From an uncultured delta proteobacterium (GTDB lineage: Bacteria; Desulfobacterota; Binatia; JACPRU01), in contig CAVUWD010000011.1 in assembly GCA_963745025.1 (NCBI GenBank), forward strand, positions 608,742 to 672,741: a DNA stretch of 64,000 nt, given 5' to 3'. Made by a program: the position numbers and the translations under genes. A model generated the notes under the pieces. That model was not told where the DNA came from. It did not search any database and saw only the letters and a list, made by a program, of their open reading frames with translations. Within the stretch, counting starts at the first letter, position 1; each line of letters begins with the position of its first letter. Shown here piece after piece: positions 8,759 through 36,823 of the stretch.

Positions 8759-8803
8759 CCGTGAAATCTCATAGCCAGTTCGCGGATCCGTGACATCTCG
8801 CGG
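8759..8803. promoter_or_regulatory. Two imperfect 16-bp palindromes, candidate enhancer (UAS) for a sigma54 activator
   Basis: CCGTGAAATCTCATAG (8759-8774) and CCGTGACATCTCGCGG (8788-8803), 110-155 bp upstream of the -24/-12 element. A related CCGCGAAATTCTGCGG lies at 12407-12422. Confidence 0.55.
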
Positions 8804-8859
8804 AGCCATCAGTGAGGCGAAGGCTTTAGAAAACTGGCAGAACTGGCGGAGAAAACACC

Positions 8860-8872
8860 TAACACCTTGACT
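8860..8872 (-). promoter_or_regulatory. IHF-like binding site
   Basis: Minus strand AGTCAAGGTGTTA has one mismatch to WATCAANNNNTTR and lies in an AT-rich tract between the UAS and the promoter. Confidence 0.5.
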
Positions 8873-8912
8873 TAATTCAGAAAATCCTGAGTCGTGCGCT
8901 GTCCATAGTGCA

Positions 8913-8928
8913 GGGCACGCCGTCTGCT
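8913..8928 (+). promoter_or_regulatory. sigma54 (-24/-12) promoter of the STAS-ECF operon
   Basis: GGGCACGCCGTCTGCT: GG(8914-15)-N10-GC(8926-27). The predicted +1 of ~8939 abuts the GTG start at 8940. Confidence 0.65.
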
Positions 8929-8939
8929 TTACCCTCACC

Positions 8940-9200
8940 GTGCTCAGGATCACGAAAATTCGAGAGACCCGCACGGGTTCGGAATTGCTCGTCGAGGGTA
9001 GTCTGACAGAGGCTTCCGCGCCCGATCTAGTCGCCATCTGCGCGCCCGATTTGACTGCGGGGCGCCAGGTACTCCTGGATCTCTCCGGCCTCCGATTTGC
9101 CAATGCCACCGGCTTGAGCGCGCTGCGAGCGCTGCTCGGGCGGGGCGCGGTGCCCTCGCGCTGCACTGATTTCGTCAAATGTCTGCTCGAAGCGAAGTGA
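8940..9200 (+). CDS. STAS-domain protein (anti-sigma antagonist-like)
   Basis: MLRIT...LLVEGSL...VLLDLSGLRFANATGLSALRAL; 86 aa; directly upstream of the ECF sigma. Confidence 0.8.
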   Translation: MLRITKIRETRTGSELLVEGSLTEASAPDLVAICAPDLTAGRQVLLDLSGLRFANATGLSALRALLGRGAVPSRCTDFVKCLLEAK

Positions 9201-9209
9201 GGACGAACG

Positions 9210-9833
9210 ATGGAAGCGCATGCTCAGACGGTTCGCGAACACCAGCACGCGTGGAGCGGAGAATCCGAGCTGGTCGCGCGATTGCGCGTCGGCGAGGAGG
9301 AGGCCTTTGCCGCGCTAGTCAAGCTCCACGGAGGACGGCTTCTCGCCACCGCGCGGCGGCTTCTCCGCGACGAGAGCGAGGCCGAGGATGCGGTTCAGAA
9401 GACCTTCCTCTCCGCCTTTCAAGCCGTCGACGGCTTCAGCGGGAACTCCCAGCTGTCGACGTGGCTGCATAGCATCGTCGTCAATCATGCGCTGATGAAG
9501 CTCCGCTCGGAGCGCCGCCACCCAGAGCAGCGGTTCGACGAGCTGCTGCCGCAGTTCGACGAGGACGGGCACCGGAGCGGGCCGGTTCGCGATTGGGACG
9601 CCTCCTGCGAGTCGAAGCTCAGCCAACACGAGACTCGTCTCGCCGTTCGCCGGGCGATCGATCGCCTTCCACCGGGTTACCGCAGTGTGATTCTGCTCCG
9701 GGACATCGAGGAGTGGGATACCAACGAAACGGCGGAGGCGATGGGGATCACCGCCGCGGCGGTGAAAATCCGCCTACACCGCGCTCGCCAGGCGCTGCGC
9801 ACCCTGCTCGAACCGACCTTCGCGGATGCGTAA
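9210..9833 (+). CDS. ECF RNA polymerase sigma-70 factor
   Basis: Region 2 AEDAVQKTFLSAF...STWLHSIVVNHALMKLR; region 4 LPPGYRSVILLRDIEEWDTNETAEAMGITAAAVKIRLHRAR; SD GAGGA. Confidence 0.93.
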   Translation: MEAHAQTVREHQHAWSGESELVARLRVGEEEAFAALVKLHGGRLLATARRLLRDESEAEDAVQKTFLSAFQAVDGFSGNSQLSTWLHSIVVNHALMKLRSERRHPEQRFDELLPQFDEDGHRSGPVRDWDASCESKLSQHETRLAVRRAIDRLPPGYRSVILLRDIEEWDTNETAEAMGITAAAVKIRLHRARQALRTLLEPTFADA

Positions 9834-9847
9834 GGTCAATCGAGACT

Positions 9848-10093
9848 CTAGCGTCTTGGCCGACGCGCCTCGAGAATCGCCTCGACGAGCTCCGCGGGGA
9901 CCTCGTCGGTCACCGGCTTGTCCGGGTCCGTGAAGGCGGCTTTGGCGGCGCGGATCGTCAGACGATAGCTTTCGAGATATCGCCGGCAGGGCGGACAAGC
10001 GACGAGGTGTTCGTCGAACTCCGCACCTTTGCTCGGGATCAGCTCCCCGGACAAGTAATCGCTGATGAAGTCGTTCAGCTCACGACAGGTCAT
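9848..10093 (-). CDS. Soluble zf-HC2 (ZAS) anti-sigma factor
   Basis: MTCRELNDFISDYLSGEL...FDEHLVACPPCRRYL (HxxxCxxC); no TM segment; 16 bp downstream of the glucose dehydrogenase stop. Confidence 0.88.
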   Translation of the reverse strand: MTCRELNDFISDYLSGELIPSKGAEFDEHLVACPPCRRYLESYRLTIRAAKAAFTDPDKPVTDEVPAELVEAILEARRPRR

Positions 10094-10109
10094 CGGGTTC
10101 TCTGGCGAC

Positions 10110-11222
10110 TCAAGCAAACCGGATCACGTTCTTGATGCCGCTTGCCTTGCCGAGCAGCAGGTCCTGATAGGCGGCAGTCGGGTAGCGGCCGGTGATCAAG
10201 CCGCGCACCGCCTCCGGCCACCGCCGCATGAAGATCCCGAGATCGCGGATCGCCGCCTCGAACGTCTCGCGGCCGGCGTTCACCGTGCCGAAGACCATCT
10301 GATTCTTGAGCACCAGGTTGCGCATGATCCGATCCGTGTCGACCTCGATCGGCGCCTTCCGTCCCGGCACGCCGGTGAACACGAAGACGCCGTTGGTGCC
10401 GAGCACATTCATCACCTCGAAGGAAACCTGCGACGCGCCCGTCGCCTCGTATACGACGTCGACGTTGCCGATCCTCTCCGGCAGCGACTCGATCGGCGCC
10501 TCGGCGGCCGAGAGGTAGCGCGCGCCGATCGACTTGACGAGATCGGCCTTGGGGTTCGGCTCCGGCTCGCGGGAATAGACCGTGGCTTGGAAGCCTTCCA
10601 CAACGAGGGCCATGGCGCCGAGGAGACCGACCGGCCCCGCGCCGAGCACGAGCGCGCGATGGCAGTGGCCCGCCGGCTCGCCGGGGTGTGCGGGGCAGGT
10701 CCAGGGCAGTCGCTGCTGCACCGCGCGGATCTGAGCCAGCGCCTTCTCGGCGATCGTCAGCGGCTCGACCAGTACTGCGACGTCGCGGAGCTCGCGAGGC
10801 ACAGGGTTCATGTAGCGATCGTCGTCGACGATCACCTCGGTCATAAAGCCATGCGCTTCCTTGATTCCGCGTTCTTGGAAGTCGCCAGTGTAGCAGAAGT
10901 CCTGCCTGTTGGCCTGGCAGGCGACGCAATGAGCGTGCGGGCATGGGCGGCGCACCATCGGGACCACCAGGTCTCCGGGCCGCACGCGTGACGCCCGCGG
11001 GCCGACCTCGACGACCTCGCCGAGCGATTCGTGACCGATGACCAGTTCGTCCGAGCTCGGCGGCGGGGTGCCGTATTCGAAAGCACAGATCTCGCGGTCG
11101 GTGCCGCAGACGCCGACCTCGAGGATACGGACCTTCACTTGGCTCGGATCCGTGATCTTCGGTTCGGGGTGATCGACTAAATCGACGCGACGTCGATCGG
11201 GGGTGACGGCAATGGCTTTCAT
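10110..11222 (-). CDS. gdh: Zn-dependent (MDR-family) glucose 1-dehydrogenase
   Basis: GVCGTDRE, IGHES, VRRPC..C..C...C, ERGI, GAGPVG, GTVNA; archaeal-type GDH pattern. Confidence 0.88.
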   Translation of the reverse strand: MKAIAVTPDRRRVDLVDHPEPKITDPSQVKVRILEVGVCGTDREICAFEYGTPPPSSDELVIGHESLGEVVEVGPRASRVRPGDLVVPMVRRPCPHAHCVACQANRQDFCYTGDFQERGIKEAHGFMTEVIVDDDRYMNPVPRELRDVAVLVEPLTIAEKALAQIRAVQQRLPWTCPAHPGEPAGHCHRALVLGAGPVGLLGAMALVVEGFQATVYSREPEPNPKADLVKSIGARYLSAAEAPIESLPERIGNVDVVYEATGASQVSFEVMNVLGTNGVFVFTGVPGRKAPIEVDTDRIMRNLVLKNQMVFGTVNAGRETFEAAIRDLGIFMRRWPEAVRGLITGRYPTAAYQDLLLGKASGIKNVIRFA

Positions 11223-11230
11223 GCCCTTTG

Positions 11231-11256
11231 GGATGCCGATCTCGCCCGCAAGTTAC
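11231..11256 (-). promoter_or_regulatory. ECF-type promoter, leaderless, for gdh + anti-sigma
   Basis: GTAAC-N16-CATCC-N8-ATG; one of seven related motifs. Confidence 0.65.
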
Positions 11257-11430
11257 GCGGAGGCAGTTTGCCCCGAAACTCTCCCCCCTGAGCGGCATCG
11301 GCGACGACACCGGGCGGATCTGCGGCGGCGATCGCGGCTGCAGTGAGCCATGAAGCGAGCGCGAGAAGACGGAGTCTCATTTGGATCGTTCCTCCCGCGC
11401 GTTTCGATGCCGCACGGCGCCGGCGGTTTC

Positions 11431-11571
11431 TCAGCGCGCCATGAAGTTTTCGGAGATGATCTCGAACCAATCGAGCGCCGGCCAGTGCTCGAGGACATAG
11501 CCGTAATGCTCGCGCCGGAGCCCGATCCCGCACCCGAGCCGAGGAAACGGCGAGATCGCCGGCGCCGTCAT
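11431..11571 (-). pseudogene. DUF692 / MNIO (BufB-like) N-terminal fragment
   Basis: [38 protein letters not shown] then TGA; only 46 codons remain of a normally ~280-aa enzyme. Confidence 0.8.
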
Positions 11572-11613
11572 CCGCTCGATGACACCGGCATTTGACGGGG
11601 CGTGGGGTGGGGA

Positions 11614-11644
11614 GGGCGCCGGGCGAGAGTCGTGCCCGGCGCCC
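11614..11644 (-). terminator. Intercistronic stem-loop after the precursor gene
   Basis: 11-bp perfect inverted repeat GGGCGCCGGGC/GCCCGGCGCCC with a 9-nt loop and no U tract (stabiliser/attenuator rather than a classic terminator). Confidence 0.5.
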
Positions 11645-11656
11645 AGCGGGGTATTC

Positions 11657-11917
11657 TCAATCTTTGACCGTGCCACCCTTGTCCGTGCATTCCTTGGCCG
11701 AAGAGACCTTCGTCAAGCCCTGGCCCTTGCAGGCGTTCTTGCCGGCGCACTCGTGACCCGCGCCCGCGCACGCGCCGTGTCCCTTACAGGCGTTGATGCC
11801 GGTGCACTTCACCTCTTTCGCCTCGCTCTTGCCTTCGTCGGCCGCCCGCGCCGCATTTGCCACGAACAAGCCGGCAACCACCGCCGCGATCAGCGCTCCC
11901 TTCAACGGACTCTTCAT
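11657..11917 (-). CDS. bufA2: Secreted six-Cys RiPP precursor, bufferin BufA2-like
   Basis: Sec signal (ARA cleavage), then [14 protein letters not shown]...[11 protein letters not shown]...EC..KGG; strong SD GAGGAGG; directly upstream of the DUF692 fragment. Confidence 0.8.
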
Positions 11918-11978
11918 TTCGATCCTCCTCGTTGAATTTTCGGTCCGCGGCTTCCGCGCGGACCGGTTCTATGGCCTT

Positions 11979-12005
11979 GGATGCCCAAGACCACACATCG
12001 GATAC
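11979..12005 (-). promoter_or_regulatory. ECF-type promoter of the bufferin-like precursor
   Basis: GTATC-N17-CATCC, followed by a 9-bp perfect hairpin (11941-11949/11957-11965) and an SD. Confidence 0.55.
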
Positions 12006-12059
12006 ATTCTTAGGGTGCGTTGCCCGGATTCCTTTCGGATGAAACTGCCGCGCGGTGAG

Positions 12060-12257
12060 CGCCTTTCGGCCAGGCACGCCCGTGAAGACGAACACCCCGT
12101 TGGTGCCGAGCACCTTCATGACCTCGAAGGAGACGCGCGAGGCGACGTAGCGCACGCCGATCGACTTCACGAGATCGGCCTTCGGGCTGGGCTCGGGCTC
12201 GCGCGAATAGACGTGCGTGACGAATCCATCGGCGGCGAGCACCATGGCGCCGAGCAT
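12060..12257 (-). pseudogene. Internally deleted fragment of a second glucose dehydrogenase
   Basis: MLGAMVLAADGFVTHVYSREPEPSPKADLVKSIGVRYV|ASRVSFEVMKVLGTNGVFVFTGVPGRKA aligns to the 10110-11222 protein with a ~25-aa gap. Confidence 0.85.
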
Positions 12258-12258
12258 G

Positions 12259-12385
12259 CTCGTTGCCGAGCAGGACGCCACGCCGTGGCCAGCATCCGGC
12301 CGCATTCGCGGCGTACCAGTGCTGCGAACGCCTCCTCGTCGCCGCGTCGCAGCCCGTCGATCAGCTCGTCCTGGACCGCCGAACC
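12259..12385 (-). pseudogene. N-terminal fragment of a second ECF sigma factor, paralogous to 9210-9833
   Basis: Manual translation QDELIDGLRRGDEEAFAALVRRECGRMLATAWR(fs)LLGNE versus ESELVARLRVGEEEAFAALVKLHGGRLLATARRLLRDE. Confidence 0.75.
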
Positions 12386-12422
12386 ATCTTGGCCGCGAAA
12401 TCTTGGCCGCGAAATTCTGCGG
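12386..12422. repeat. 14-bp tandem repeat overlapping a UAS-like palindrome
   Basis: ATCTTGGCCGCGAA x2 (12386-12413) merging into CCGCGAAATTCTGCGG, immediately after the activator stop codon. Confidence 0.7.
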
Positions 12423-12424
12423 AT

Positions 12425-14371
<1,947 letters not shown>

Positions 14372-14428
14372 CTTCGTCCATGATGGCACATCGGGACGGC
14401 GGTCGACCACGGAGGCTGGGGCCCCAGC

Positions 14429-17213
<2,785 letters not shown>

Positions 17214-17234
17214 GTTGCGATTCCTATCAGTCGC

Positions 17235-18875
17235 CTAGTGTAGGAAGTTTCCGGCGACGACTTGCTCTCCCGCATTCGACCGTGTGCGAGCGTCCATCAC
17301 CGCCTCGAAATTTCGGCGCAGCTCGGGAAGGGCAGCGACCAGCGCAGCGAATTCCCGTTTCGGCAGGCTGAGCGCGGTCATCGCTTCCGTGCAGCGGATG
17401 GTCGCGCCCCGCACGGTCTCGTTGAGCAATGCCATCTCGCCGAAGAACTGGCCGGCACCGAGCTCGGCGAGCCGAATCCCCGGCCCGCCTTCTTCGCGCA
17501 CTGCCTCGGCCTTGCCGCTTTGGATGATGTAGATCCGGTCGCCGAGGTCGCCCTGGCGGAAGACTTCCTGACCCGGCTCGAAGTGCTCCTTGGAGACTCC
17601 CGCGGAGCCAGTGAACTTGAGCTCGATGAGCTCGGGTGGCAGCAAGAGGTCGAGCGTCCAGGAAGTCGCCACCTTGAGCCGGCGCCCCCATCCCGGGAGC
17701 TTCATTAGGTAGATCGTTCGCCACATCCACCAGGCGAGAAAGCCCGAGATGTTGAAGCCGAAAATCTCGGCGACGGCGGAGCGGTGCCCGAGCGAGCCCA
17801 TCTTGCCGAGACCTTTGAAGTCGAAGGTGCTAGGCTCGCCGCCGCGGATTGCGGCGACGATGTTATGGGCCGCCGCTCGTGCTTGGCGGATCGCGTGCTG
17901 GGCGGTTGGGGGCGAGAAGCCTCCCTCCGGCGCCGGCACCTGGGCGCAGTCACCGAGCGCCCAGACGTCTTGTCGTCCCTCGACGCGTAGGCAACGATCG
18001 GCGATGAGCCGTCCGTTCTTCGTCTTAGGAAGCGCGAGCGCCTCGATCAGCGGATGCGGCGAGCTCGGTACCGTCGACACGAGCGTACGGGTCGGGATGC
18101 GCTCGCCGCCCGCGAGCACCGCCTCTTCGCCGGTCGCCGCTTCGAGCCTGGTGTTGAGCCGGATCTCAACGCCCCGCTTGGCAAGGATCTTCTGCGCGAA
18201 GCGGCCGAGCTTCTCGGTGACCTCCGGCAGAATGCGGTCCTGGGAGTGGACCAGCACGACGCGGATCTCTTTCGGGTCGAGGCCGCGGTAGTTGCGTGCC
18301 ACCCGGCGTACGAAATCGTTGAGCTCGGCCGCGACCTCCACGCCGGAGAATCCGCCGCCGGCGACGACGAAGGTGAGGAGCTGGCGGCGGAGCATGGGAT
18401 CGTCGTCCTCGATCGCTGCCTCCTCGAGAGCGCGAATGACGCGACTGCGCAGCAGCAGCGCGTCGGCGAGGTTTTTGAAGGGCATCGCGTGCTCGGGAAG
18501 CCCGCGCAGGCCGCGGAAGTCGGTGACGTTGCCGAGCGCGAGGACGAGGTGATCGTACTCGATGGCGTGCGGGTGTGGGCGGAATCCCGGGCTGGTCATC
18601 ACCACCTTGCGCGCGAGGTCGATCGATTGCACATCGCGCACGTGGATCGCTGTGCGCGGCAGGAGCCGGCGGAGAGGGCTCACGGTGTCGGTGAGGCCGA
18701 TCGAACTCGAGACCACCTCGGCCAGCATCGGCTGGAAGACGAAGTAGTTCTCCTTGGCTACGAGGGCGATCTCGAAGTCGTCGCGGCGCCCGAGCGCCTT
18801 CTCTAGGGACTGTGCGGCGTAGACCCCCGCAAACCCACCACCGAGAATCAGGACACGCTTGCGAATGGAGCTCAT
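17235..18875 (-). CDS. ndh: Type II NADH dehydrogenase-family flavoprotein with C-terminal cNMP-binding domain
   Basis: [39 protein letters not shown]; tail [14 protein letters not shown]...FFGEMALL...RGATIRC. Start at MSSIRK (18875). Confidence 0.88.
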
Positions 18876-18883
18876 GCTGGGTT

Positions 18884-18909
18884 GGATGCCGCTCCGCTCG
18901 TCCCGTTTC
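18884..18909 (-). promoter_or_regulatory. ECF-type promoter, leaderless, for NDH-2-cNMP
   Basis: GAAAC-N16-CATCC-N8-ATG. Confidence 0.65.
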
Positions 18910-19231
18910 AGGCTGAGAGCCGCATCCTCGCAAGCGCCCGAAGACCGCCACTTTGCTCGAAGCCGAGCTCGATCCGAAGCTCTTCGGCATCGTCGACCAG
19001 CTGCTCGAGTGGCAACGTCTCGAGCAGTGGCCGGCCCGAGCCGCCGTTGCCGCGATGGTCGTAGTAGACCAGTCGGAGCACGTCGCCGAGCGGATCGAGC
19101 CACTCCCGGAACTGCGTGTGATCGACGCCGAGCCCTCCGTGCATCACCAGGCAGGGTGTTCCCGCGCCCATCTCGACGTAGCGGAGGCGCGTGCCGTTCA
19201 CTTCGGCGTAGCGAATCTCAACCTCGTTCAT
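18908..19231 (-). pseudogene. Alpha/beta hydrolase (proline-iminopeptidase-like) N-terminal fragment
   Basis: LVMHGGLG, LVYYDHRGNGGS; ends before the G-x-S-x-G nucleophile; ATGA overlap with the VOC gene. Confidence 0.75.
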
Positions 19232-20262
19232 GGCTCGGTCAACTGCATGACGTGGCCATCGGGATCGCCGACGCCGACGGCGCGGTGGAAGCCGAGCTCT
19301 CCCCCGGGGGTCTCGACCTTTCCAGGCGAGACGAGCGTTCGCCCGCGAAGCGCGCTTGCCACGCGCGAGGCGTCGCCGGTCACGAGGCGGGTCTGCCAGT
19401 GCGCGAGGTCGTTGGCACGGAGGTCGGAAGGCGCCGGGCGGCCGTCGCGTGGCGCCATGTACTCGAGGAGCTCAATGCCGGGGCCTGCCGCCGCGCGCAG
19501 GCCGGTGATGCGCAGGCGAGCGCCGAACACGTTGTTCAGGTGCTCCTGCTCGGTTCCGAAGTTCTCGCTCTCCCCGGCGACACGGAAGCCTAGCGTGTCG
19601 CGGTAGAAGCCGAGGCTCCGCTCGGTGTCGGCGACAACGATCGCCGTGTGATCGATGCCGAGGAAGAGTTGGTCAGTCTTGCGGTGCCACTTCTCGGCGC
19701 CCTTGTCAGGCGGGAATTGCAATATCTCGAGCGGATGGCCGTCGGGGTCCTTGAAGTAGAAGGCGCGAATGCCGGCGGCGTTCGGAATCGTCTTCGGCAG
19801 GAGCTGCGGGCCGGAGGAGGCATATTCGACCTTGTGCTCACGCAGATGCTCGTAGGCGCGATCCATGTCGGAGACGATGATCGCCACGTGCTGGAACCAG
19901 CGGTCGTTGCTTCGCGAGTCGGGAGGGATCGGCCGCCCGCGCGGGGCGAGGTACTCGGTGAGCTCGAGCGACTCGTCGCCGAGCCGCATGCCGACGACGC
20001 GCATGCGCAGGCCGAACACGCCCTCGAGATGCTCGTAGTCGGGGCCCGCGAGCTCGACGTCCGAGACCTTCTCGAACGTCAGCACGTTGGAGAAGAAGTC
20101 GACCGAGCGATCCATGTCCGACACGGTCATGCCGACGACGCCGACGCCACTGACGAGCGCCGGACCAACCGCACCCTCACCCCACGCCAGCCCACCGCCG
20201 GCGACCGGCGTCAGGAGCAAAAGCACGGGCAGCAGCCGAAGCAGAGCGAGCCTACGGATCAT
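19228..20262 (-). CDS. Secreted VOC (glyoxalase/bleomycin-resistance fold) protein with tandem domains
   Basis: Signal peptide MIRRLALLRLL..., VSDMDRSVDFF, QHVAIIVSD, DPDGHPLE, IDHTAIVV, DPDGHVM. Confidence 0.88.
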   Translation of the reverse strand: MIRRLALLRLLPVLLLLTPVAGGGLAWGEGAVGPALVSGVGVVGMTVSDMDRSVDFFSNVLTFEKVSDVELAGPDYEHLEGVFGLRMRVVGMRLGDESLELTEYLAPRGRPIPPDSRSNDRWFQHVAIIVSDMDRAYEHLREHKVEYASSGPQLLPKTIPNAAGIRAFYFKDPDGHPLEILQFPPDKGAEKWHRKTDQLFLGIDHTAIVVADTERSLGFYRDTLGFRVAGESENFGTEQEHLNNVFGARLRITGLRAAAGPGIELLEYMAPRDGRPAPSDLRANDLAHWQTRLVTGDASRVASALRGRTLVSPGKVETPGGELGFHRAVGVGDPDGHVMQLTEP

Positions 20263-20269
20263 GGCCCTT

Positions 20270-20295
20270 GGATGCAGCGGGGCGGCTTCGGTTTC
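20270..20295 (-). promoter_or_regulatory. ECF-type promoter, leaderless, for the VOC gene
   Basis: GAAAC-N16-CATCC-N7-ATG. Confidence 0.65.
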
Positions 20296-20469
20296 CGCGC
20301 CAACGCCGAGCAAGCGCTCGCGCCGCTTCGAGAAGGCGGTATAGGATGTTGTCTGTGAAGCTCGGATTGCGCGTGAGCGCCAGATGATCGCCGACGCTGA
20401 ACGTGGCGCTGCAGGCCACGATCAAGGGCGAAATCGCGACCGAGCCAACGCTGAGGAGGACGTACCCCA

Positions 20470-20786
20470 CTTGATTACGGGAACGCCGCCGCGCCGGCTC
20501 GGGCGGCGGAAGATGGCGGCCGTGCGCGCCTTGCCGATGCCCACCTCCACGCTGGCGACCTGCGTGTCGTCGAGCCGGTAGACGACGATCGGGTAACCGC
20601 CGTCGTCGACCACGACGATGACCACAGTCGAACCGCGCTTCTTGGCCTCGACTTCGGCCGCGGCAACGATCTTCCGCGCCGACTCGAACGTCAACACCTT
20701 CTTGAGGGTCTGGCGGCCGCGGATTGGGTTCCGAACGTCAGCGAGAGAACCAGAGCGGGGAAGACGAGCAGAGCGCGTGTCGTCAT
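20470..20786 (-). pseudogene. GlcG/HbpS (DUF336) heme-binding protein, frameshifted and internally deleted
   Basis: Signal peptide MTTRALLVFPALVLS... frameshifts into KKVLTFESARKIVAAA...VVDDGG...IGKARTAAIFRRPS|RGGVPVI. Confidence 0.75.
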
Positions 20787-20798
20787 CGAGGGTCCCTC

Positions 20799-22370
20799 TC
20801 AGCCGAGCCGCTCGGCGATCCGGTCGGCGACACGGAGCGCGTTGGCGACGATGGTCAGCGCCGGATTCACCGCCGCGCTCGAGGGGAAGAAGCTCCCGTC
20901 GACGACGTAGAGGTTGTCGAGCTCGTGCGCCTTGCAGCTCGGGTCCAGCGCCGAGGTTTTCGGATCGTGGCCGAAGCGGACGGTGCCGTTCTGATGCGCC
21001 ACGCCCGCCAGCGGGATGCGTTGGCCGAGGAAGAGATTGCGGGAGAAGAGGCCCTGGTGACATTCGTGTCCGTGCTCGCGGCACTTCGTCTGCTGCTTCA
21101 GCAGGCTTTCGAGCTTGGCGATCAGCCGCTTGTGCCCCTCCTCGTTGTTCGGCTGGTAGCTGAGGACGATGTTGCCCTCGCGGTCGAGGGTCACCCGGTT
21201 CTGCGGATCAGGCAGATCTTCGGAAGTAAGCCAGAAGTCGAGCGAGTGCTTGGCCATCAAGTCGAGCGTGAAGCCGGGAGCGAGCGCCGGTGCTCCCGCT
21301 TTGAGGGTGACGCCGTCGAGCTTGCCGACGAATGAAATGTGTCCCATCGGGTGAGGCCATTCAGGCGAGCCGAAATAGAAGTCGTTGAGCGCTAGCGTCT
21401 TCTGAAAGACTGTCGGATTCGGACACTTGGAGACGGCCATGAGCACGGAGTTGACGTGTCCCATGTAGTGGCGGCCGACGACGTCAGAGCCGTTGGCGAG
21501 GCCGCGGGGATGCTTCTCGTTCGTCGAGCGGAGCAATAGCGCCGCCGAGTTGATCGCACCGGCGGAGACGACGACGATGTTCGCCGAGTAGGTCTCCGTC
21601 ACTCCCTCGCGGCGGACCACGACCTCGGTCACCTCTCGGCCCGAAGCGCTGGTCTCGAGCCGCTCGACGGTTGCATTGGTCGCGAGACTCACGTTCGGGT
21701 GCTCGAGCGCCGGGTCGACGCACAGCACCTGGGCGTCGGCTTTGGCGTAGACGAGACAGGGAAAGCCGTCGCAGGTGTCGCACCGAATGCACTTGCTCGC
21801 GCGGCTGTTCTTCTCGTCGAGCTGTATACCGAGCGGCACATGGAACGGCCTGAGACCCTGCTTCGCGAAGTCGTCCGCGAGCTGCTGGATGCGCGGTTCG
21901 TGGCTGATCGGCGGGTGCGGGTAGGGCCCGCTCGCGGGGGGATCCACGGGATCGACGCCGCGCTCCCCGTGCACGTGGTACAAGCGCTCCGCCTCTAGAT
22001 AGTAGGGCTCGAGCTCATCATAGGAAATCGGCCACGCCGGGGAGATGCCGCCGTGGTGACGGACCTCACCGAAGTCTGCCTGGCGCAAGCGGAACAGAGC
22101 CGCACCGTAGAACTTGGTATTGCCGCCGACATAGTAGTTCGTGTGCGGATGGAGCGGCTTCCCATCCGCGTCGCGCCAGACCTCTTTGGTCTGATAGTGC
22201 CCCTCCACGTTCACGGCGCGGGAATTCCAGTTCTCCTTCTCCCGCGGCACGTAGTCCCCTCGCTCCAGGATGAAGATGCGCTTCCCGCTCGACGCCAGCC
22301 GGTGGGCGAGAGTTCCGCCCCCTGCCCCGCTGCCGATGATGATGACGTCGTAATGATTGTTGGCTGACAT
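20799..22370 (-). CDS. GMC-family oxidoreductase (with CxxCxxC insert)
   Basis: YDVIIIGSGAGGG, VGGNTKFYGA, CIRCDTCDGFPC, SAGAINS, AHQNGT, VVDGSFFPSSAAVNPALT; SD AGGAG before MSANN. Confidence 0.92.
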   Translation of the reverse strand: MSANNHYDVIIIGSGAGGGTLAHRLASSGKRIFILERGDYVPREKENWNSRAVNVEGHYQTKEVWRDADGKPLHPHTNYYVGGNTKFYGAALFRLRQADFGEVRHHGGISPAWPISYDELEPYYLEAERLYHVHGERGVDPVDPPASGPYPHPPISHEPRIQQLADDFAKQGLRPFHVPLGIQLDEKNSRASKCIRCDTCDGFPCLVYAKADAQVLCVDPALEHPNVSLATNATVERLETSASGREVTEVVVRREGVTETYSANIVVVSAGAINSAALLLRSTNEKHPRGLANGSDVVGRHYMGHVNSVLMAVSKCPNPTVFQKTLALNDFYFGSPEWPHPMGHISFVGKLDGVTLKAGAPALAPGFTLDLMAKHSLDFWLTSEDLPDPQNRVTLDREGNIVLSYQPNNEEGHKRLIAKLESLLKQQTKCREHGHECHQGLFSRNLFLGQRIPLAGVAHQNGTVRFGHDPKTSALDPSCKAHELDNLYVVDGSFFPSSAAVNPALTIVANALRVADRIAERLG

Positions 22371-22390
22371 CGGAGTTCTCCTGCTCGGCT

Positions 22391-22567
22391 TCAGATCGGA
22401 GGCTCGAGGATCGACCACGGGAAGTCCGGCCCGACTTCGCCCGGAGACTCCATTGGCGTGATCCGCTCGAGCAAAGCGCCAACATTCTCGACGAGTAGCA
22501 GGATGACAACGAGCCACGCCGCCCCGATCAGGCGTCCCCGCCGTTGATTCGTTCGAGTCTCTCGCAT
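22391..22567 (-). CDS. Small (58 aa) single-TM hypothetical protein
   Basis: MRETRTNQRRGRLIGAAWLVVILLLVENVGALL...; the ATG lies 8 nt after an ECF-type -10, and the stop lies just before the GMC SD. Confidence 0.5.
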   Translation of the reverse strand: MRETRTNQRRGRLIGAAWLVVILLLVENVGALLERITPMESPGEVGPDFPWSILEPPI

Positions 22568-22575
22568 GCCGGTTT

Positions 22576-22650
22576 GGATGCCGGTCGGCTCGGAGCGTTT
22601 CATGCATTGGACCCTCTGAAATCGAAACCGGGCGATCCCGAAGAGCATCT
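22576..22650. promoter_or_regulatory. Back-to-back pair of ECF-type promoters
   Basis: Minus: GAAAC(22601-22597)-N16-CATCC-N8-ATG. Plus: GAAAC(22624-28)-N17-CATCT, then SD GGAGG and GTG 22672. Confidence 0.65.
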
Positions 22651-22671
22651 ATCGAGTCGGAGGCGCACACG

Positions 22672-23257
22672 GTGGACCATCCGAATGTCGATGCGAAGGT
22701 GGAGTGGCTCGAGAACGGCCTCGGGGAATTCGCCTCGGCGACCGCCGCAGGCGTTCGCGCTCGGCGCTATCGCGCGTCGCTGCTGACGGCGTCGACCCCG
22801 CCTAAGGGGAGAATAGTCCTGGGGAACGGTCGGCCTGCCGCTCGTCCTCCTTCCAAAGGACCGATCTCGCCGGCTCGTTGATCAGGTGGAGAAACATCTG
22901 TGGACTCCTTCCGGCCTGCGCTCGCTCGCCGCCGGCGATCCCATATATGTCGGCCGCTACCAAGGCGGGCCGCGCGAGCGCGATGGAGCCTGTCACCAGG
23001 GGACCACGTGGCCCTTCCTCGCCGGGCCGCTCGTTGAGGCGTGGGTGCGCGTGCGCGGCGGCACCGCTTCCGCGCAGGGCGAAGTGCGACACCGCTTCCT
23101 CGAGCCGCTGTTCCCGCACGTCGACCCGAGCGGACTCGGCCATCTCGCGGAAATCGCCGATACGGATCCTCCGCACGCGTCGCGCGGCTGGACGTTCCAA
23201 GCCTGGTCGGTGGGTGAGGCGCTCAGGCTCGCCCGCCTGGTCCTCGCCAAGCGTTGA
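22672..23257 (+). pseudogene. Amylo-alpha-1,6-glucosidase (glycogen debranching) remnant, N- and C-termini only
   Basis: EWLENGLGEFASATAAGVRARRY...TPPKGRIVL joined to LWTPSGLRSL...HQGTTWPFL...HLAEIAD...QAWSVGEALR; the middle of the gene is missing. Confidence 0.8.
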
Positions 23258-23266
23258 GGCCTCGGT

Positions 23267-24073
23267 TCAGACGCTCGCGGAGGAGCGAGCGATCGTCGGA
23301 AGCGTCGACCGGGTGCGGAACGCGCAGAAGATGCAGGGCTGATCCTCCGCGTGGTCGAGTTTGGCGCAAAAGACGCCCTCCTCGCCGAAGAGCCCCACAT
23401 AGGCTTCCGCGGCCGCGAGCATGCCGAGAGGCGGCGCGGTGAAGTAGATCCAAAGCGCCTGCCAATCCTGGGCGAAGAGAGCGGAGGCGAGCGTCCGCGC
23501 CGGATTCATGCTCATTCCCGAGATCGGAGCCTCGAGACTGATGTAGGCGGCGATCAGCAGGCCGCAGCACACGCCCGTGAACCGCGAAACGAGCTCGATG
23601 TTCGACACCCAGAGCACAATGGTCATCAGCACGAAGGAGATCGCCGCCTCGGCGAGGAACGCCCCGCCGCTACCGTAGCTTCCCGGCAGAGTCGCCACGT
23701 AGTTCACCGACGGGTGGGCGAGCGTCCCTCCGAGCAGGAGAGCCGCGATCCATACCCCGGCAGCGCCGCCGGCGAACTGCGCCGCCACGTAGCAGGCCGC
23801 ATCTCCTGGATGAATTTTTCCGAGCCAGAAAAACGTCAGCGTCATGCACGGGTTGATGTGAGCGCCCGAGCGCTGGCCCCAGGGCGAGTAGACGATGGCG
23901 ACGGCGGTGAGCCCCATGGCGATGCCCATCAGCACGCGGCGCAGGACGGGATTCGGCAGCAGCTGGTGGAGCGGCGAGCTCGTGTGCTCGAGCAGCGCGC
24001 CGAACGCGCAAGCCGAGATCATGAACGCGCCGAGTCCCGCGGCTTCGATCAGGTACTCGGGCCAGTGGCGCAT
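23267..24073 (-). CDS. MIP/aquaporin-family channel
   Basis: SGAHINPC and GMSMNPART loops, six TM helices, C-terminal CAKLDH...CIFC. Confidence 0.9.
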   Translation of the reverse strand: MRHWPEYLIEAAGLGAFMISACAFGALLEHTSSPLHQLLPNPVLRRVLMGIAMGLTAVAIVYSPWGQRSGAHINPCMTLTFFWLGKIHPGDAACYVAAQFAGGAAGVWIAALLLGGTLAHPSVNYVATLPGSYGSGGAFLAEAAISFVLMTIVLWVSNIELVSRFTGVCCGLLIAAYISLEAPISGMSMNPARTLASALFAQDWQALWIYFTAPPLGMLAAAEAYVGLFGEEGVFCAKLDHAEDQPCIFCAFRTRSTLPTIARSSASV

Positions 24074-24098
24074 GGTCGTCGCTCTCCACAGACGCCGG

Positions 24099-24650
24099 CT
24101 AGACCTTGTCGCGCCCTGTCATCCGCGCGATCAGGCCATCGAGCGACACCGGTCCCGGCCCGGCGATCGCCAGCCAAGCGAAGATCGCGACATAGGCCCA
24201 CTCGACGAGGCTGAGGAGAGCGGGGATCGAGTCGACGTTCTCCCACTGCGCGGTACGGATCGCCACCAGCATCACGATGATCAGCGGGATCGCCGCGACC
24301 CGGGTGGCGAGGCCGAAGAGCACCAGTAGCCCGCAGAAGAGTTCGTTCGCCGAGGCGAACGGCGCTTGGTACTGCGGATACGGAACGCCGAGCTCCGTGA
24401 AGTAATCGATGATCTTCGGCAGGTTGTGGAGCTTTCCCCATCCGCTGGAGGCGAACACCCAGCCGACCGTGACCCGGGCCACGAGCGGCGCGAGCCATGC
24501 GAGCCGCGAGGCCACGGCGATCGGCAGGTCGTAGATCAAGGTTGCGATCAGCTTCATGATTCCTTCCCTTCTTGAGCTCGCCGCCACGGCGCCCGGGGAA
24601 GGCGCCTCATCTCGGTGCAACAGCTTTGCAACTGCCGTGAGAGTCTCCAT
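24099..24650 (-). CDS. DoxX-family membrane protein
   Basis: LVARVTVGWVFASSGWGKL, NELFCGLLVLFGLATR, GPGPVSLD. Two SD-supported starts (24650 and 24557). Confidence 0.88.
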   Translation of the reverse strand: METLTAVAKLLHRDEAPSPGAVAASSRREGIMKLIATLIYDLPIAVASRLAWLAPLVARVTVGWVFASSGWGKLHNLPKIIDYFTELGVPYPQYQAPFASANELFCGLLVLFGLATRVAAIPLIIVMLVAIRTAQWENVDSIPALLSLVEWAYVAIFAWLAIAGPGPVSLDGLIARMTGRDKV

Positions 24651-24684
24651 GTCTGTCCTCCTCGGTCGAGTATCTTCGGTGGTG

Positions 24685-24711
24685 AGATGCCTCGCCACAC
24701 TTTCAGGTTTC
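24685..24711 (-). promoter_or_regulatory. ECF-type promoter of the doxX-aquaporin unit
   Basis: GAAAC-N17-CATCT, followed by SD GAGGAGG. Confidence 0.55.
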
Positions 24712-25249
24712 GTCGGTGATGACAGGGGCTCGAGGGCTCGTACTGGACGGCGAGAGGCCAACTGGCGTGGAGCGCTTTGGAGTTCGCTACGAGCGCCAAC
24801 AGCAAGACCGTCTTCTACGGGAACGACCTTTCAGATGCGTCGTCTCCGGGGTTGCCTTTCAAGGTACTGGAAGTCTTCAACAATGTGGCGAACTGCACGA
24901 CATTGCCTAGGCCGTCCGCGAACATCTCGGCGCTCTTCGACAACGTGTCCCTGAACTCGTCCGCCGTCGGGCCGTAGAATAAACGCGAGGATGGGAAAAG
25001 TCTCCGCAAAGTACTGATTGAACGTCAGTGTCCCTCCACCTGACGGCGAAAACTCTTTCCTCCCCGAGCCAAGGGAATAGCCTGTGGGCGGGTAATATCT
25101 ACGACCACGATGACGGCGCGAGGAGATCGGCGGGCAGGATGACGGTGCCACGACTGTCGATTGCGCGCGCGCCACCTCGGAGAGATAACGCGCGGGCTCG
25201 ACTCCGACGACTCCCGGACAGGGAACCTTGGTGGACACCACCGGCCGTA

Positions 25250-27829: not shown

Positions 27830-28232
27830 GACGATCCGGATCTGGCGTGTGAAAAACGGCTACTCCGGAGAGAAGCCGCTCTTTCGGCGTCTCGTGACGC
27901 TTCTCCGGCGCTACCTCCGTACCCGGACCGATGACAATGCGGCGCTCTTCGTCGGTCGCCAAGGGCGCCTGAGCAAGCGCTGGATCCAGGCTCTCTTCAC
28001 CCGCTACGCCACTGCCGCCAACCTCCCGCCGAATCGGAGGCACGTGCATTGTCTCAGGCACAGCTGCGCGACCTACCTTCTCGACGCTGGCGAGCCGATC
28101 GACTTCGTACAAGATCACCTCGGTCATCGAAACATCGAGTCGAGCCTCGTCTATGCCCGCGTGTCGGATCGGCGGCGAAGCAAGACCATCAGCAGGCTCG
28201 AGCGGTCGCGGGAGATCGCGCTGCCAGCTTGA
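27830..28232 (+). pseudogene. Tyrosine recombinase C-terminal half (FimB/FimE-like)
   Basis: RIWRVKNG, HVHCLRHS, QDHLGHRNIESSLVY (HxxR, H, Y intact); the N-terminal catalytic Arg box is missing. Confidence 0.78.
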
Positions 28233-32461: not shown

Positions 32462-33151
32462 ATGAACGTAGAGGAGAGCATCGAGTGTGTTGTGGCAAAA
32501 CCGGGCGTTGACGGCGCGGACGCCGCGATGGAGCGCTACTCCAAGGGTGACGAGGTTGCGTTTGCCGAATTGTACGATGCGATTACGCCGCGCCTGCTTG
32601 GCTTCTTACGCAAAGCCACGCGGGATGACGTCGCTGCGGAGGACCTGATGCAACAGACGCTCCTGCAGATTCACCGGGGGCGTGGGTCATTCATACCGGG
32701 CGCCCGGGTGATGCCGTGGGCCTATGCGATCGCGCGGCGATTGATGATCGACAGCGCTCGGCGGCGCCGCGTGGAGCGGCGCCTATTCTCGGAGGCTTCG
32801 GCCGACGACGATCGGATGACGTACGAACCGACCGCAGCGATGGCTGCCGCCGACGATCTCTTGCACGCGCGCCGCCTGGAGGGGCGCGTCCGGCAGCGAC
32901 TTGATGCCCTCCCCGAGGCCCAGCGCACCGCGTATCAACTTCTCCAGCAGGAAGGCCTGAGCCTCAAAGAAGCAGCGGAAGTATTGGGAACGTCAGTGGC
33001 CGCCGTGAAGCTGCGAGCACATCGCGCCTACGAGGCTTTGCGTGCCGTGCTTCGGTACGAAACCCGGCCGCAAGAGTTTTCTCCGTCAGAGAACTCAGTC
33101 AACCCGTCGATCTCAGTCGCGATCCGAAACTTTCGCCCGATCCATCCGTAA
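32462..33151 (+). CDS. ECF sigma factor, copy A (rearranged 3' end, no anti-sigma)
   Basis: AEDLMQQTLLQIHR, PWAYAIARRL, LPEAQR...VKLRAHRAY. Matches 57338-57949 until ALRAV, then reads into unrelated promoter DNA. Confidence 0.85.
   Translation: MNVEESIECVVAKPGVDGADAAMERYSKGDEVAFAELYDAITPRLLGFLRKATRDDVAAEDLMQQTLLQIHRGRGSFIPGARVMPWAYAIARRLMIDSARRRRVERRLFSEASADDDRMTYEPTAAMAAADDLLHARRLEGRVRQRLDALPEAQRTAYQLLQQEGLSLKEAAEVLGTSVAAVKLRAHRAYEALRAVLRYETRPQEFSPSENSVNPSISVAIRNFRPIHP
33126..33151 (+). promoter_or_regulatory. ECF-type promoter of the secreted protein, copy A
   Basis: GAAAC-N16-CGTAA; the same motif is at 57240-57265 (-) and 57310-57335 (+). Confidence 0.6.
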
Positions 33152-33221
33152 TCAGTAGCCGAGCGGCACTTTCGCCGCCCTGGACTCAAAACCGGCGCAC
33201 GCAGCGCCAAAGGAGAATTGT

Positions 33222-33815
33222 ATGAAGACTTCCGAAAAGTTCGCACGTCCGCCCACGCTCCTCTTCGCCGGCGTGGCTGCTCTCACCCTGGCCGTAGCGG
33301 TCGCAAGACCGCCGCTGGCCTCAGCGAACGACGCGGCGCACCCTGCCGACGTCGAGAAGCTGGAGCTGACCCCATCCTCTGCGCAGCTGGCAGAGTGTAT
33401 GCCCGACGCCACGCTGGACGTCAGGGTGGAACTCGACACCGAAAAGGCCGGCTTCGACAGGTTCCAGATCCTTGCCAAAAACCTGCCCCCCAACCGAGAC
33501 TACGCGGTCTTCTTGCTTGAGCAGGCCGGAGCGCCGTTCGGCGCGGCCGAGTACATCGGCGACTTCAGCACCAACGAGCACGGAAACGGCCAGAACACTT
33601 TCAAGTTGATCGTCCAGGAGGCCTTCTCGTCCACGCTCGTCGACGGCCACCGCGTGCGCGTCGATCTCAACCAGGTCGGCGTCTGGTTCGCCGACCCGGC
33701 GGGCGATGACTTCTGTCTCGGGGCCAACAGCCCCGTTACGCCGTTCGACGGAGACAACGAGGCGGGTGTCCAGGCCTTCAACTCTGCCAACACCGACGCG
33801 CTTCCTGCCCCGTAG
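33222..33815 (+). CDS. Secreted hypothetical protein, copy A
   Basis: SD AAGGAG, signal peptide, acidic beta-rich body with two Cys; frame conserved in copy 56576-57169. Confidence 0.8.
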   Translation: MKTSEKFARPPTLLFAGVAALTLAVAVARPPLASANDAAHPADVEKLELTPSSAQLAECMPDATLDVRVELDTEKAGFDRFQILAKNLPPNRDYAVFLLEQAGAPFGAAEYIGDFSTNEHGNGQNTFKLIVQEAFSSTLVDGHRVRVDLNQVGVWFADPAGDDFCLGANSPVTPFDGDNEAGVQAFNSANTDALPAP

Positions 33816-34040
33816 CCGCAATGTCCCCCAATCTGGGAGCGCCCGGCTGGGCCATCTTTGGAAAAGCAGGGCGGCAGGCCGTGTCAGCTGGGAGCCACTA
33901 TATCGCCAAAGAGGTTTTCCCAAGCTGGCCGTCCCTGCCGCCCTGCGTTGAGCTTCCGCCCGGACTGCCGGGCTAGCCGCACCACTCTTGGGAAGCGATC
34001 GGAATATTCCCTTTTCAGGACGTAAACGAGAGGAGAAATT

Positions 34041-35510: not shown

Positions 35511-35677
35511 CTTTGGATCGTGATCCTCATGGCCGGCCGGCGATGTACAACGTCGGCCGGCCACCACCGAGCAAGAGAGGGACATCGACAATGGAGAGAA
35601 CACGAGAAGGGACGGGCCGCGAGGCTCGCCGCGACGAAAACCAAACTTCCGCAAATCGACTTAGGGGGAACTAGGCC

Positions 35678-36823
35678 ATGACACTCGACAAGAAATTCGC
35701 CGCTCTGATTACCTCGCTCGTATTGATGGCTGCCACCTCTGGCTACGCGCGCGCGGCGGGGTACGTGCAGTCCAACCTGGTTTCAGACATACCCGGGCTC
35801 GCGCAATTTACCGATCCCACGCTGCTCAATCCGTGGGGCATCGCGTTCTTCCCCGGCAACCCTTTGTGGGTCAACGACAACAATGCGGGGCTGTCTGCCC
35901 TCTACGACGGTCTGGGAGTTCCGTTTCCCGGACTGCCGCAGGTCACCATCCCGGCGCCAATCAGCGCCACCGGTGGAACTCCGACCGGAATCGTCGCCAA
36001 CTTTTTTGTCGGCAGCGGGGCCTTCGCAATCCCCAACCCGCCGACCGGCAACTTCGGTCCGGCGCTATTCATCTTCTCCACCGAGGACGGCACCATCGAG
36101 GCATGGAACATCGCGGGGTTCCCTAGCCCCGGCAGCCCTGGCATCCCCAATCCGCTTACTGCCGTGATCGTCGTGGACAACTCGGCGGGCGGTGGACCCA
36201 CCGGCGCCGTTTACAAGGGGCTCGCGCTCGAGGCGAACACGGCCAACGGACCGCTTCTCTATGCGGCCAATTTCCGCACCGGCAATATCGATGTCTTCGA
36301 CACCAATTTCCATCAGGTAACTCTGAGCGGTTCATTCGCCGACCCGAACGTGCAGCACGGATACGCGCCCTTCGGCATTCAGGATGTCAACGGCGAGCTC
36401 TGGGTGACCTACGCGATGCAGGATAAGGCGAAACATGACCCGGTCAACAAGCCGGCGCATGGCTTCGTCAGTGTGTTCGACACCGACGGCAACCTCCTCC
36501 AGCACTTTGCCCAGCACGGGCACCTGGACTCGCCATGGGGTGTGGCGCTGGCGCCGGCGAGCTTCGGCCGATTCGCCAACGACATCCTGATCGGGAATTT
36601 TGGCAACGGCAAGATCAACGCGTATGATCCGGCGACCGGCCACTGGCTGGGAACGGTTTCCGGACCCGACGGCAAGCCCCTCATCAATGACGGATTGTGG
36701 TCGCTAACGTTCAGCGGTCCGAGCGGCCTGACGCCGCTCGGCGCTACGCCCGACACACTGTACTTCACGGCGGGGCTGAACGACGAGGCAGACGGACTCT
36801 TCGGCACGATCTCGCCGAATTAG
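35678..36823 (+). CDS. TIGR03118-family secreted protein, copy A
   Basis: YVQSNLVSD, LLNPWGIA, PTGIVAN, FIFSTEDGTI, AVYKGLA, YAPFGIQ, LDSPWG, LYFTAGLNDEADGLFG. Confidence 0.9.
   Translation: MTLDKKFAALITSLVLMAATSGYARAAGYVQSNLVSDIPGLAQFTDPTLLNPWGIAFFPGNPLWVNDNNAGLSALYDGLGVPFPGLPQVTIPAPISATGGTPTGIVANFFVGSGAFAIPNPPTGNFGPALFIFSTEDGTIEAWNIAGFPSPGSPGIPNPLTAVIVVDNSAGGGPTGAVYKGLALEANTANGPLLYAANFRTGNIDVFDTNFHQVTLSGSFADPNVQHGYAPFGIQDVNGELWVTYAMQDKAKHDPVNKPAHGFVSVFDTDGNLLQHFAQHGHLDSPWGVALAPASFGRFANDILIGNFGNGKINAYDPATGHWLGTVSGPDGKPLINDGLWSLTFSGPSGLTPLGATPDTLYFTAGLNDEADGLFGTISPN

Follow-up and report, generated by a model that had tools for sequence, protein, structure and literature searches.

The stretch of DNA analysed here (the window: 64,000 nucleotides, C11:608742-672741) belongs to the genome assembly of an uncultured bacterium of the class Binatia (G000; 5.65 Mb on 20 contigs, completeness 92.65%, contamination 7.6%). 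Toward its left end lies a compact set of regulatory genes. A small STAS protein (8940-9200, plus strand) and an extracytoplasmic function (ECF) sigma factor (9210-9833, plus) stand behind a candidate sigma54 promoter. A soluble zf-HC2 protein, the predicted anti-sigma factor (9848-10093, minus), is the last gene of a glucose dehydrogenase (GDH) operon, a GAF–PAS sigma54 activator lies at 12425-14371 (minus), and shared promoters of a GCATC type precede metabolic and redox genes nearby. We propose that these parts form a conserved two-tier cascade, in which the activator would fire the sigma54 promoter, this promoter would supply the STAS protein and the ECF sigma, and the ECF sigma would read the GCATC regulon. 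We give this reading a probability of roughly 0.72; comparison among 39 genomes of nine families of the class and five Acidobacteriota loci supports conservation of the predicted wiring.

The locus and its relatives

Relatives were sought with a STAS profile built from eight sequences, which matched in 55 of 151 genomes of the class. Forty-five STAS loci, mainly the top-scoring among the matches listed, were examined over stretches of at most 20 kb each (about 40 kb in G001, a genome of the same genus as G000), and the counts of gene presence given below hold within these stretches. An ECF gene lies directly behind the STAS gene in 39 of the 45. These 39 loci come from 39 genomes of nine families, in which kin are not independent of each other. 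Gene families were called by Pfam and NCBIfam scans, and motif conservation was counted against background rates. A scan of genome contigs gave just two close relatives of the locus, and a scan of a plasmid collection gave none.

The sigma54 promoter and its activator

The sigma54 promoter (8914-8927, plus) has GG at 8914 and GC at 8926, and its start, estimated at about 8939, adjoins the STAS GTG at 8940. Over the whole 5.65-Mb genome there are 15 matches to the strict sigma54 pattern. Among the relatives this pattern lies within 70 nt of the start codon in 35 of the 39 STAS-ECF loci, against a background of 1.7%, and in 30 of these 35 it is found 26-32 nt ahead of that codon, a spacing from which we infer leaderless or very short-leader STAS-ECF messages.

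Farther upstream, beginning 126 bp from the promoter, is a palindrome, CCGYGA-N4-TCGCGG (8788-8803, plus), the predicted upstream activating sequence (UAS) for the activator; a degenerate copy precedes it at 8759-8774 (plus). With up to two mismatches allowed, CCGCGA-N4-TCGCGG is present in 33 of the 39 loci (background 6.6%), and the distance from palindrome to promoter ranges from 67 to 147 bp among relatives. The initial annotation had described a UAS–IHF–(-24/-12) arrangement here. Its outer elements hold up well, but the middle one does not: the IHF-like site (8860-8872, minus, one mismatch) has an equally good counterpart in just 3 of the 39 relatives. Four genes of the HU/IHF family are present in G000, as is rpoN.

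The activator has the GAF, PAS, AAA+ and HTH domains and the intact GAFTGA motif expected of a sigma54 activator, in agreement with the earlier assignment. A GAF activator is found in 27 of the 39 loci and stands beside the UAS in 18, directly upstream in tandem in 12 and divergent in 6. Taken with the counts for promoter and palindrome, this agrees with conservation of the module, for which a synteny search across genomes had been proposed as a check. The cysteine of the GAF domain (C89 in the window) is conserved in 21 of 22 sequences, and our guess is that the signal is thiol-reactive or redox in nature and acts at this residue. When solved structures were searched by sequence with the GAF domain there was no match, and one weak profile match; a fold search returned the GAF domain of PtsP (Z 19.5, root-mean-square deviation 2.5, 157 aligned) and free methionine-R-sulfoxide reductase (Z 16.9, deviation 2.8, 153 aligned).

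In the 12 tandem loci the palindrome lies just behind the activator gene. The window shows the same arrangement, as the initial annotation had noticed: a palindrome immediately 3' of the activator stop (12393-12422, no strand assigned), its own sigma54 promoter and STAS gene deleted, is followed by stubs of a second sigma (about 12259-12368) and a second GDH (12059-12254; together 12059-12368, minus). The sigma stub has 77% nucleotide identity to the fused STAS-ECF gene of G001 and 68% to the intact window ECF gene, and the order in G001 is activator, palindrome, STAS-ECF fusion, MFS gene, GDH. The stubs are thus the remains of a tandem cassette, and the STAS-ECF pair at 8940 is a second copy.

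This history raises the possibility that the sigma54-to-ECF step is real but that the promoter at 8914 is fired by some other activator, the neighbouring one being part of the cassette decayed at 12020-12425. The greater likeness of the stubs to the G001 gene would fit such a separation, as would the abundance of activators in G000 and the position of the window ECF in a quick tree, where it pairs with an Acidobacteriota sequence (SH-aLRT support 88) outside the main clade of the class (98). Yet the palindrome at 8788 matches both the one behind the activator and the consensus of the class, and the neighbouring activator has the sole copy of its type of GAF domain in G000. We regard an activator elsewhere as improbable. 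A site at C9:78351, considered as a second cascade, was rejected; it lies inside a gene of the opposite strand.

The STAS protein and its fusion to the sigma

The STAS protein belongs to a family that begins MLRIT. It scores 26.3 bits against STAS_2, under the cut-off of 29.2 bits that two of its homologues pass, and a profile search matches TM1442, RsfB and SpoIIAA. STAS and sigma share one reading frame in 26 of the 39 loci, and two further loci have apparent frameshifted fusions. Of the best 120 homologues of a fused protein, nearly all span most of its length, most are annotated as STAS plus sigma, and clusters resembling it are most frequent in Candidatus Binatota. In an AlphaFold model of the fusion (mean predicted local distance difference test score 87.7, predicted template modelling score 0.46) the STAS domain is well folded, and the model matches anti-sigma antagonists (4hyl, 6m36, 1vc1) and ECF sigmas as separate parts. 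Because the template modelling score is low and STAS stands as a domain of its own, packing of STAS on the sigma is not supported by the model.

The family shares the STAS fold with SpoIIAA and RsbV, in which we take the phosphorylated serine to be the residue straight after the conserved aspartate, but it lacks a conserved serine there: serine occupies this position in 2 of 46 and 4 of 126 sequences. No kinase or phosphatase was seen among the annotated neighbours of the STAS loci. The six STAS loci that have no ECF gene all show a -24/-12-like site by eye, three of them by the strict pattern, and five of the six include an activator; thus, the STAS protein appears to accompany sigma54 control generally. 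Second MLRIT-type STAS genes, with no ECF behind them, occur in G000 (C11:561213-561473, locus L101) and G001 (contig C1, L102). The L101 gene lies directly behind another sigma54 activator; its -12 box is non-canonical and its palindrome a different one.

A broader idea, which we hold tentatively and consider rather unlikely, is that MLRIT-type STAS proteins are an unrecognised class of phosphorylation-free regulators, encoded first behind sigma54 promoters, that may act back on the activator or the sigma. In that case the STAS-ECF fusion would be an ECF sigma of a new kind, whose N-terminal regulatory domain ties the second tier to the first.

The ECF sigma and the promoters ascribed to it

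The nearest model to the window ECF sigma is PRK11922 (NF008888), which we used as a stand-in for the tailed (RCE/D) ECF29-type group. The window protein scores 173.6 bits against a cut-off of 204, and three clade or near-clade members score 164-182, compared with 276-321 for four tailed relatives. The RCE/D C-terminal extension is absent from the window sigma and from all 18 sequences aligned. In the quick tree of 118 rows, 81 fall in one clade (support 99), with the tailed group separate (100) and the STAS-linked sigmas scattered over several places. The window ECF is the only member of the clade in G000 (313 bits versus 130 for the next sigma). Among 301 genomes of the Acidobacteriota phylum the sigma is found in 28. 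In 25 of the 30 loci, zf-HC2 stands at +1 and the STAS gene is missing. STAS is present in the other 5; an activator AAA domain accompanies it in four of these, and the palindrome occurs within 1.5 kb in four. The sigma lies outside ECF32, fails the defining features of ECF29 and fits the descriptions given of ECF270/271.

The strict form of the promoter motif, GWAAC-N15-GCATCC, occurs at 11 sites in the genome, four of them in the window and each of these 7-8 nt before an ATG. A matrix of the four window sites matches at 12 bits or more before 62 of 603 genes in the loci of relatives, versus 4 in shuffles, and the refined consensus is YGAAAC-N15/16-GCATCNA. Retrained on other genomes, the matrix gives nine sites that reach 15 bits between 11.2 and 24.75 kb, where 0.35 are expected; four are the seeds, and for the other five the Poisson probability is near 3e-5. 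Six of the nine precede intact genes and three precede remnants. The shared promoters that the initial annotation saw over this region are therefore present, although they number nine and not seven. In G000 as a whole, the motif reaches 11 bits in 61 of 5490 upstream regions, compared with 87 of 603 in the loci of relatives, which were the training set. Just 23 of the 5490 reach 13 bits, including those of both bufA paralogues and a glgC-like gene, so the regulon would be mostly local.

From left to right, the sites in the window precede the GDH-zf-HC2 operon (11231-11257, minus, 8 nt before the ATG), no gene at all (11274-11300, plus; the G001 equivalent precedes the MFS gene, which is absent in the window), a short reading frame (11405-11431, minus), bufA (11979-12006, minus; a variant with a TGTATC -35 box that both bufA paralogues share), the NDH-2/GH63 run that may extend to the activator (18884-18910, minus, 8 nt before the ATG), the VOC gene (20270-20296, minus, 7 nt before the ATG), a small reading frame followed by GMC (22576-22602, minus), a debranching-enzyme remnant (22623-22650, plus, divergent) and the DoxX-MIP pair (24685-24712, minus).

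Three considerations lead us to ascribe these promoters to the window ECF. First, it is the sole clade member in its genome. Second, relatives that lack STAS have the motif before their own sigma operons (L028/L188, L114, L130, L159, L194, L207), and tailed ECF29-type relatives have it upstream of their own genes. Third, the transcription start of the ECF29 sigma RpoE8 of Sinorhizobium meliloti has been mapped behind GGGAAC-N15-GCATCCAA (PMC6180224).

The same promoters could, in principle, be read by a different sigma, such as the SigF/NrsF-type pair at 57338-58638, with the window ECF a mere neighbour. Bufferin clusters of Caulobacter are reported to belong to the SigF regulon (10.1101/2024.03.18.585515), an ECF-NrsF pair does lie inside the window, and the motif is present in genomes that have no close match to the window ECF. 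Set against this, the ECF16 promoters listed for RpoE7 have a -10 box of CGAAT rather than GCATC (PMC6180224), the motif at 11 bits precedes none of 13 ECF-like genes in G000, and both STAS-free clade members and ECF29-type sigmas have it before their own genes. A different reader thus seems very improbable to us. If the window ECF does read the bufA promoter, control of bufferin here would differ from the SigF control described for Caulobacter in that source. The pair itself consists of an ECF sigma and an NrsF-type anti-sigma (SigF/ECF16-like), and a 93% copy of its sigma lies at 32462-33151.

Reading GCATCC as a -35 box, of the ECF18/19 type, was rejected because start codons follow the element after 7-8 nt, its upstream partner is fixed and no common box lies downstream. 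A scan for sigma70 promoters gave none. The 3' ends of tandem activators also give weak ECF-like matches (8.7-10.8 bits); these come from a conserved coding stretch and were not counted.

Feedback

Zinc-binding anti-sigma (ZAS) factors of the RsrA type carry the motif Cys ... HxxxCxxC. In an alignment of 18 short zf-HC2 sequences, C3, H29, C33 and C36 are invariant, as they stand in the window protein, and no hydrophobic stretch was seen. The gene is present in 28 of the 39 loci, and in 18 of these 28 an ECF site of its own precedes it; negative feedback is thus likely to be the conserved loop. The ECF motif is absent upstream of the STAS-ECF start in all 39 loci (0/39), and the observation, made from the window before, that the ECF lacks an autoregulation motif now extends to its relatives.

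Positive feedback on the activator, which had been suggested from its place at the end of the NDH-2/GH63 run, does not generalise: of 32 called activator genes, 2 have an ECF site before them, and one of these two calls is doubtful. In the window, 21 nt separate NDH-2 from GH63 and 57 nt separate GH63 from the activator. Terminator-like sites number 6 versus 8.2 in shuffles, and none lies between NDH-2 and the activator. Given the short gaps and the absence of such a site there, read-through into the activator is possible in the window, not in general.

In nine loci (L076, L078, L082, L083, L085, L086, L088, L099, L075) the anti-sigma gene is divergent and lies 180-410 nt upstream of STAS-ECF. 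Its ECF promoter is therefore near the activator site, in an arrangement like that of hrpJ and hrpL, and occlusion at these loci could constitute a second negative loop.

Target genes and decay of the window copy

The genes behind the GCATC promoters are partly intact and partly decayed. Those intact are the zinc-dependent GDH family protein (10110-11222, minus), an NDH-2-like oxidoreductase with a C-terminal domain for binding cyclic nucleotides (17235-18875, minus), a VOC/glyoxalase-family protein with a hydrophobic N-terminal stretch (19228-20262, minus), a GMC oxidoreductase (20799-22370, minus), a MIP channel of the aquaporin family (23267-24073, minus), the membrane protein DoxX (24099-24557, minus) and a BufA2-type bufferin precursor (11657-11917, minus; 69.8 bits versus a cut-off of 60, with a 92% identical paralogue on contig C20). 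The initial annotation had named all of these as targets, and their genes are confirmed as open. Other members of its list are damaged: the glycogen debranching enzyme is a remnant with an internal deletion (22684-23257, plus; residues 4-53 joined to 504-640 of a 660-residue homologue), GlcG/HbpS is a stub (20422-20703, minus; residues 28-97 of 157), and a GH63/MGH1-like glycoside hydrolase is frameshifted (14429-17213, minus; nine segments in all three frames). Stubs of a DUF692 (MNIO) protein (11431-11571, minus; 46 codons, with an intact copy on C20) and of an alpha/beta hydrolase (18908-19231, minus; residues 1-88 of 273) are also present. A 58-codon reading frame with one hydrophobic stretch (22391-22567, minus) lies between its promoter and GMC and starts 8 nt behind the consensus promoter; it has no homologue in the loci of relatives examined or in G000.

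The GH63 frameshifts are probably consensus errors. Public contigs of 85% likeness, mostly from other organisms, lack single bases that are present in the window. Four further GH63 paralogues lie on contigs C6, C8 and C14, and three of them are also split over frames. A contig from sequencing run X1 bridges the hydrolase deletion, which shows that the same deletion exists elsewhere. A contig from run X4 tracks the activator (22 differences over 891 bases) and then departs from the window sequence at 14421, which makes the GH63-activator junction tentative. Several of the deletions stop right before an ECF promoter (11405-11431, 18884-18910 and 20270-20296): the promoters are kept and the preceding genes cut.

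Among the 39 loci, the most frequent cargo is DoxX (19), NDH-2 (18), GMC (14), MIP (13) and gluconolactonase-like proteins (10), followed by GDH (9), VOC, debranching enzyme and sugar-nucleotidyl transferase (8 each), GH63 and GlcG (7 each), MsrP, an MscS channel-DEP fusion and FMN reductase (6 each) and DUF692 (5). None of 20 cargo families sought at the six ECF-free STAS loci is present. The predicted regulon fits glucose release and oxidation combined with redox and metal defence, the substrates being guesses at the level of families.

Several neighbouring features deserve mention. The MscS-DEP fusion stands beside the cascade at, for example, L018:7460-9073, L019:12683-14224 and L099:5248-6819, twice with its own ECF site. 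The bufferin parts of the window are the precursor and the DUF692 stub, not the full set of precursor, MNIO and DUF2063; an intact bufferin-type cluster at C20:158973-160990 and a third precursor at C17:29982-30248 both lie behind the TGTATC-N16-GCATC variant. A DoxX paralogue with a variant ECF site is divergent from genes that we take to be pmoCAB-like (C2:25092-28793). Farther right in the window, several kb are duplicated between 32469-39835 and 53249-64000. The stretch 36919-39835 repeats 53249-56165 in inverted orientation (99.9%), and other blocks match at 93-97%; an ECF sigma, a tautomerase and an 834-residue Trans_reg_C-domain protein are encoded there. This pattern reflects either recent duplication or assembly of a strain mix.

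Decay on this scale invites the view that the island is a relic and that the cascade, though working in relatives, is no longer useful in this strain. The stubs, at least six in number, and three promoters that no intact gene follows fit that view, as do the GDH tail that is all that remains here at the site carrying the module in G001 (C2:17255-17470) and the C-terminal fragment of a phage integrase near the right end of the island (27849-28232). But activator, STAS, ECF, anti-sigma, GDH, NDH-2, VOC, GMC, MIP and DoxX are all open and full length, the window promoters are close to consensus, and many parts of the window are covered by close contigs from four studies. We consider a relic quite improbable and prefer to see the window as holding a probably functional copy of the core.

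Discussion

In the two-tier cascade that we favour, the GAF-PAS activator would bind CCGCGA-N4-TCGCGG about 100 bp upstream of the sigma54 promoter and open it in response to a cytoplasmic signal. The promoter would yield a leaderless or short-leader message for STAS and an ECF sigma that has no promoter of its own. The sigma would then read YGAAAC-N15/16-GCATCNA promoters, both of genes for glucose release and oxidation (GH63, debranching enzyme, GDH, gluconolactonase, GMC) and of redox and metal genes (NDH-2, DoxX, MsrPQ, GlcG/HbpS, bufferin, aquaporin). It would also drive its own soluble zinc anti-sigma, which would damp the response and might make a second, post-translational input necessary. 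The window would hold one working core copy within a partly decayed island. The initial annotation had the outline of this scheme, and lacked the STAS-ECF fusion, the negative feedback through zf-HC2, the decay of targets and the precedents in HrpRS-HrpL and ECF29.

Several observations weigh against this scheme. First, the ECF linkage of 39 in 45 is overstated, because the STAS profile was built on ECF-linked copies and mainly the best matches were examined. Second, the activator has 26 tblastn matches in G000, and the fold neighbours of its GAF domain share 16-19% identity with it, from which no ligand is inferred. Third, a sigma54 site with a similar upstream palindrome precedes a repeat-like gene of about 1350 codons at C11:519962 (minus), possibly a second target of the activator. 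Fourth, the link between motif and sigma is loose in places. The reverse-strand control at the loci of relatives gave 22 matches with the seed matrix and 34 with the refined one, which we ascribe to putative divergent promoters. The motif lies within 800 nt in just 5-6 of 25 STAS-free Acidobacteriota loci. Strict genome-wide counts separate 11 genomes with the ECF (44 sites, 4.0 per genome) only weakly from 30 without (71 sites, 2.4 per genome), and a genome without a close ECF match can have up to 8 strict copies. In S. meliloti, moreover, overexpression of RpoE8 activated no target (PMC6180224). Finally, the evidence is comparative sequence throughout: genes, motifs, conservation and the fusion are observed, and the binding partners, the signal and the role of STAS are predicted.

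How does the module compare with known systems? The closest precedent in wiring is the cascade of Pseudomonas syringae that runs from HrpR and HrpS, an activator pair not known to have GAF-PAS input, through sigma54 to HrpL. In the accessible text of three descriptions (PMC5263251, PMC8999054, PMC7826278), an enhancer-binding protein fires the sigma54 promoter of an ECF gene (HrpL, ECF32), the ECF runs a regulon, it is not positively autoregulated, and negative feedback is present, all as we propose here. The two differ in parts and output. HrpL reads GGAAC/CCAC and controls type III secretion, whereas the window motif is YGAAAC/GCATC with metabolic and redox neighbours, and the STAS gene, the fusion and the zinc anti-sigma are absent from the HrpL descriptions as far as these extend.

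Three ECF groups resemble the second tier, again judged from the parts of the sources available. ECF29 (RpoE8) shares the best NCBIfam model, PRK11922, and its promoter, with a -35 of GGGAAC, a 15-nt spacer and a -10 of GCATCCAA, comes close to the window motif (PMC6180224, PMC7826278). Its -10 sequence CATCCAA agrees with the window motif, and the -35 differs (YGAAAC/YGTAAC in the window). ECF29 sigmas are described with an RCE/D tail, without an anti-sigma and as predicted to be autoregulated (PMC7826278); the window sigma is without the tail, falls below the cut-off, has a ZAS partner and belongs to another branch. ECF270/271 likewise have a soluble ZAS partner and include members from Deltaproteobacteria and Acidobacteria (PMC7826278, PMC8999054), and the ECF270 promoter is reported there as not conserved, as expected without autoregulation. 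In these groups the ZAS gene is at +1, as in the 25 STAS-free Acidobacteriota loci; in the window it is adjacent but convergent, and it lies elsewhere in STAS-linked loci. The available descriptions of ECF270/271 mention no STAS, sigma54 activator, target motif or regulon. In ECF19s7/s18 a STAS anti-anti-sigma is encoded at -1 of an ECF with a soluble zinc-finger anti-sigma (PMC7826278), the one mention of a STAS domain in the part of the supplement to that classification available; there the group is ECF19, the anti-sigma is fused to MDMPI, and neither sigma54 control nor a STAS-sigma fusion is described.

A looser likeness exists to the Rrp2-RpoN-RpoS pathway of Borrelia burgdorferi, where, in the material available, a sigma54 activator controls a sigma70-family factor with a large regulon, but RpoS is not an ECF and Rrp2 is a response regulator. 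Our literature search, from whose scope most subscription journals fell outside, found no paper on a STAS-ECF/sigma54 module.

The module is thus apparently a real, conserved variant of a known cascade type, with undescribed parts and output. It would supply a target motif and a regulon for an ECF270-like clade whose descriptions, in the parts available, contain neither, and an ECF with an N-terminal STAS domain, not found in the accessible part of the ECF classification. Because every step could be rebuilt in a laboratory strain with reporters, the proposal is directly testable. Beside HrpL, it would add a sigma54-to-ECF cascade unrelated in parts and output and common in an uncultured lineage.

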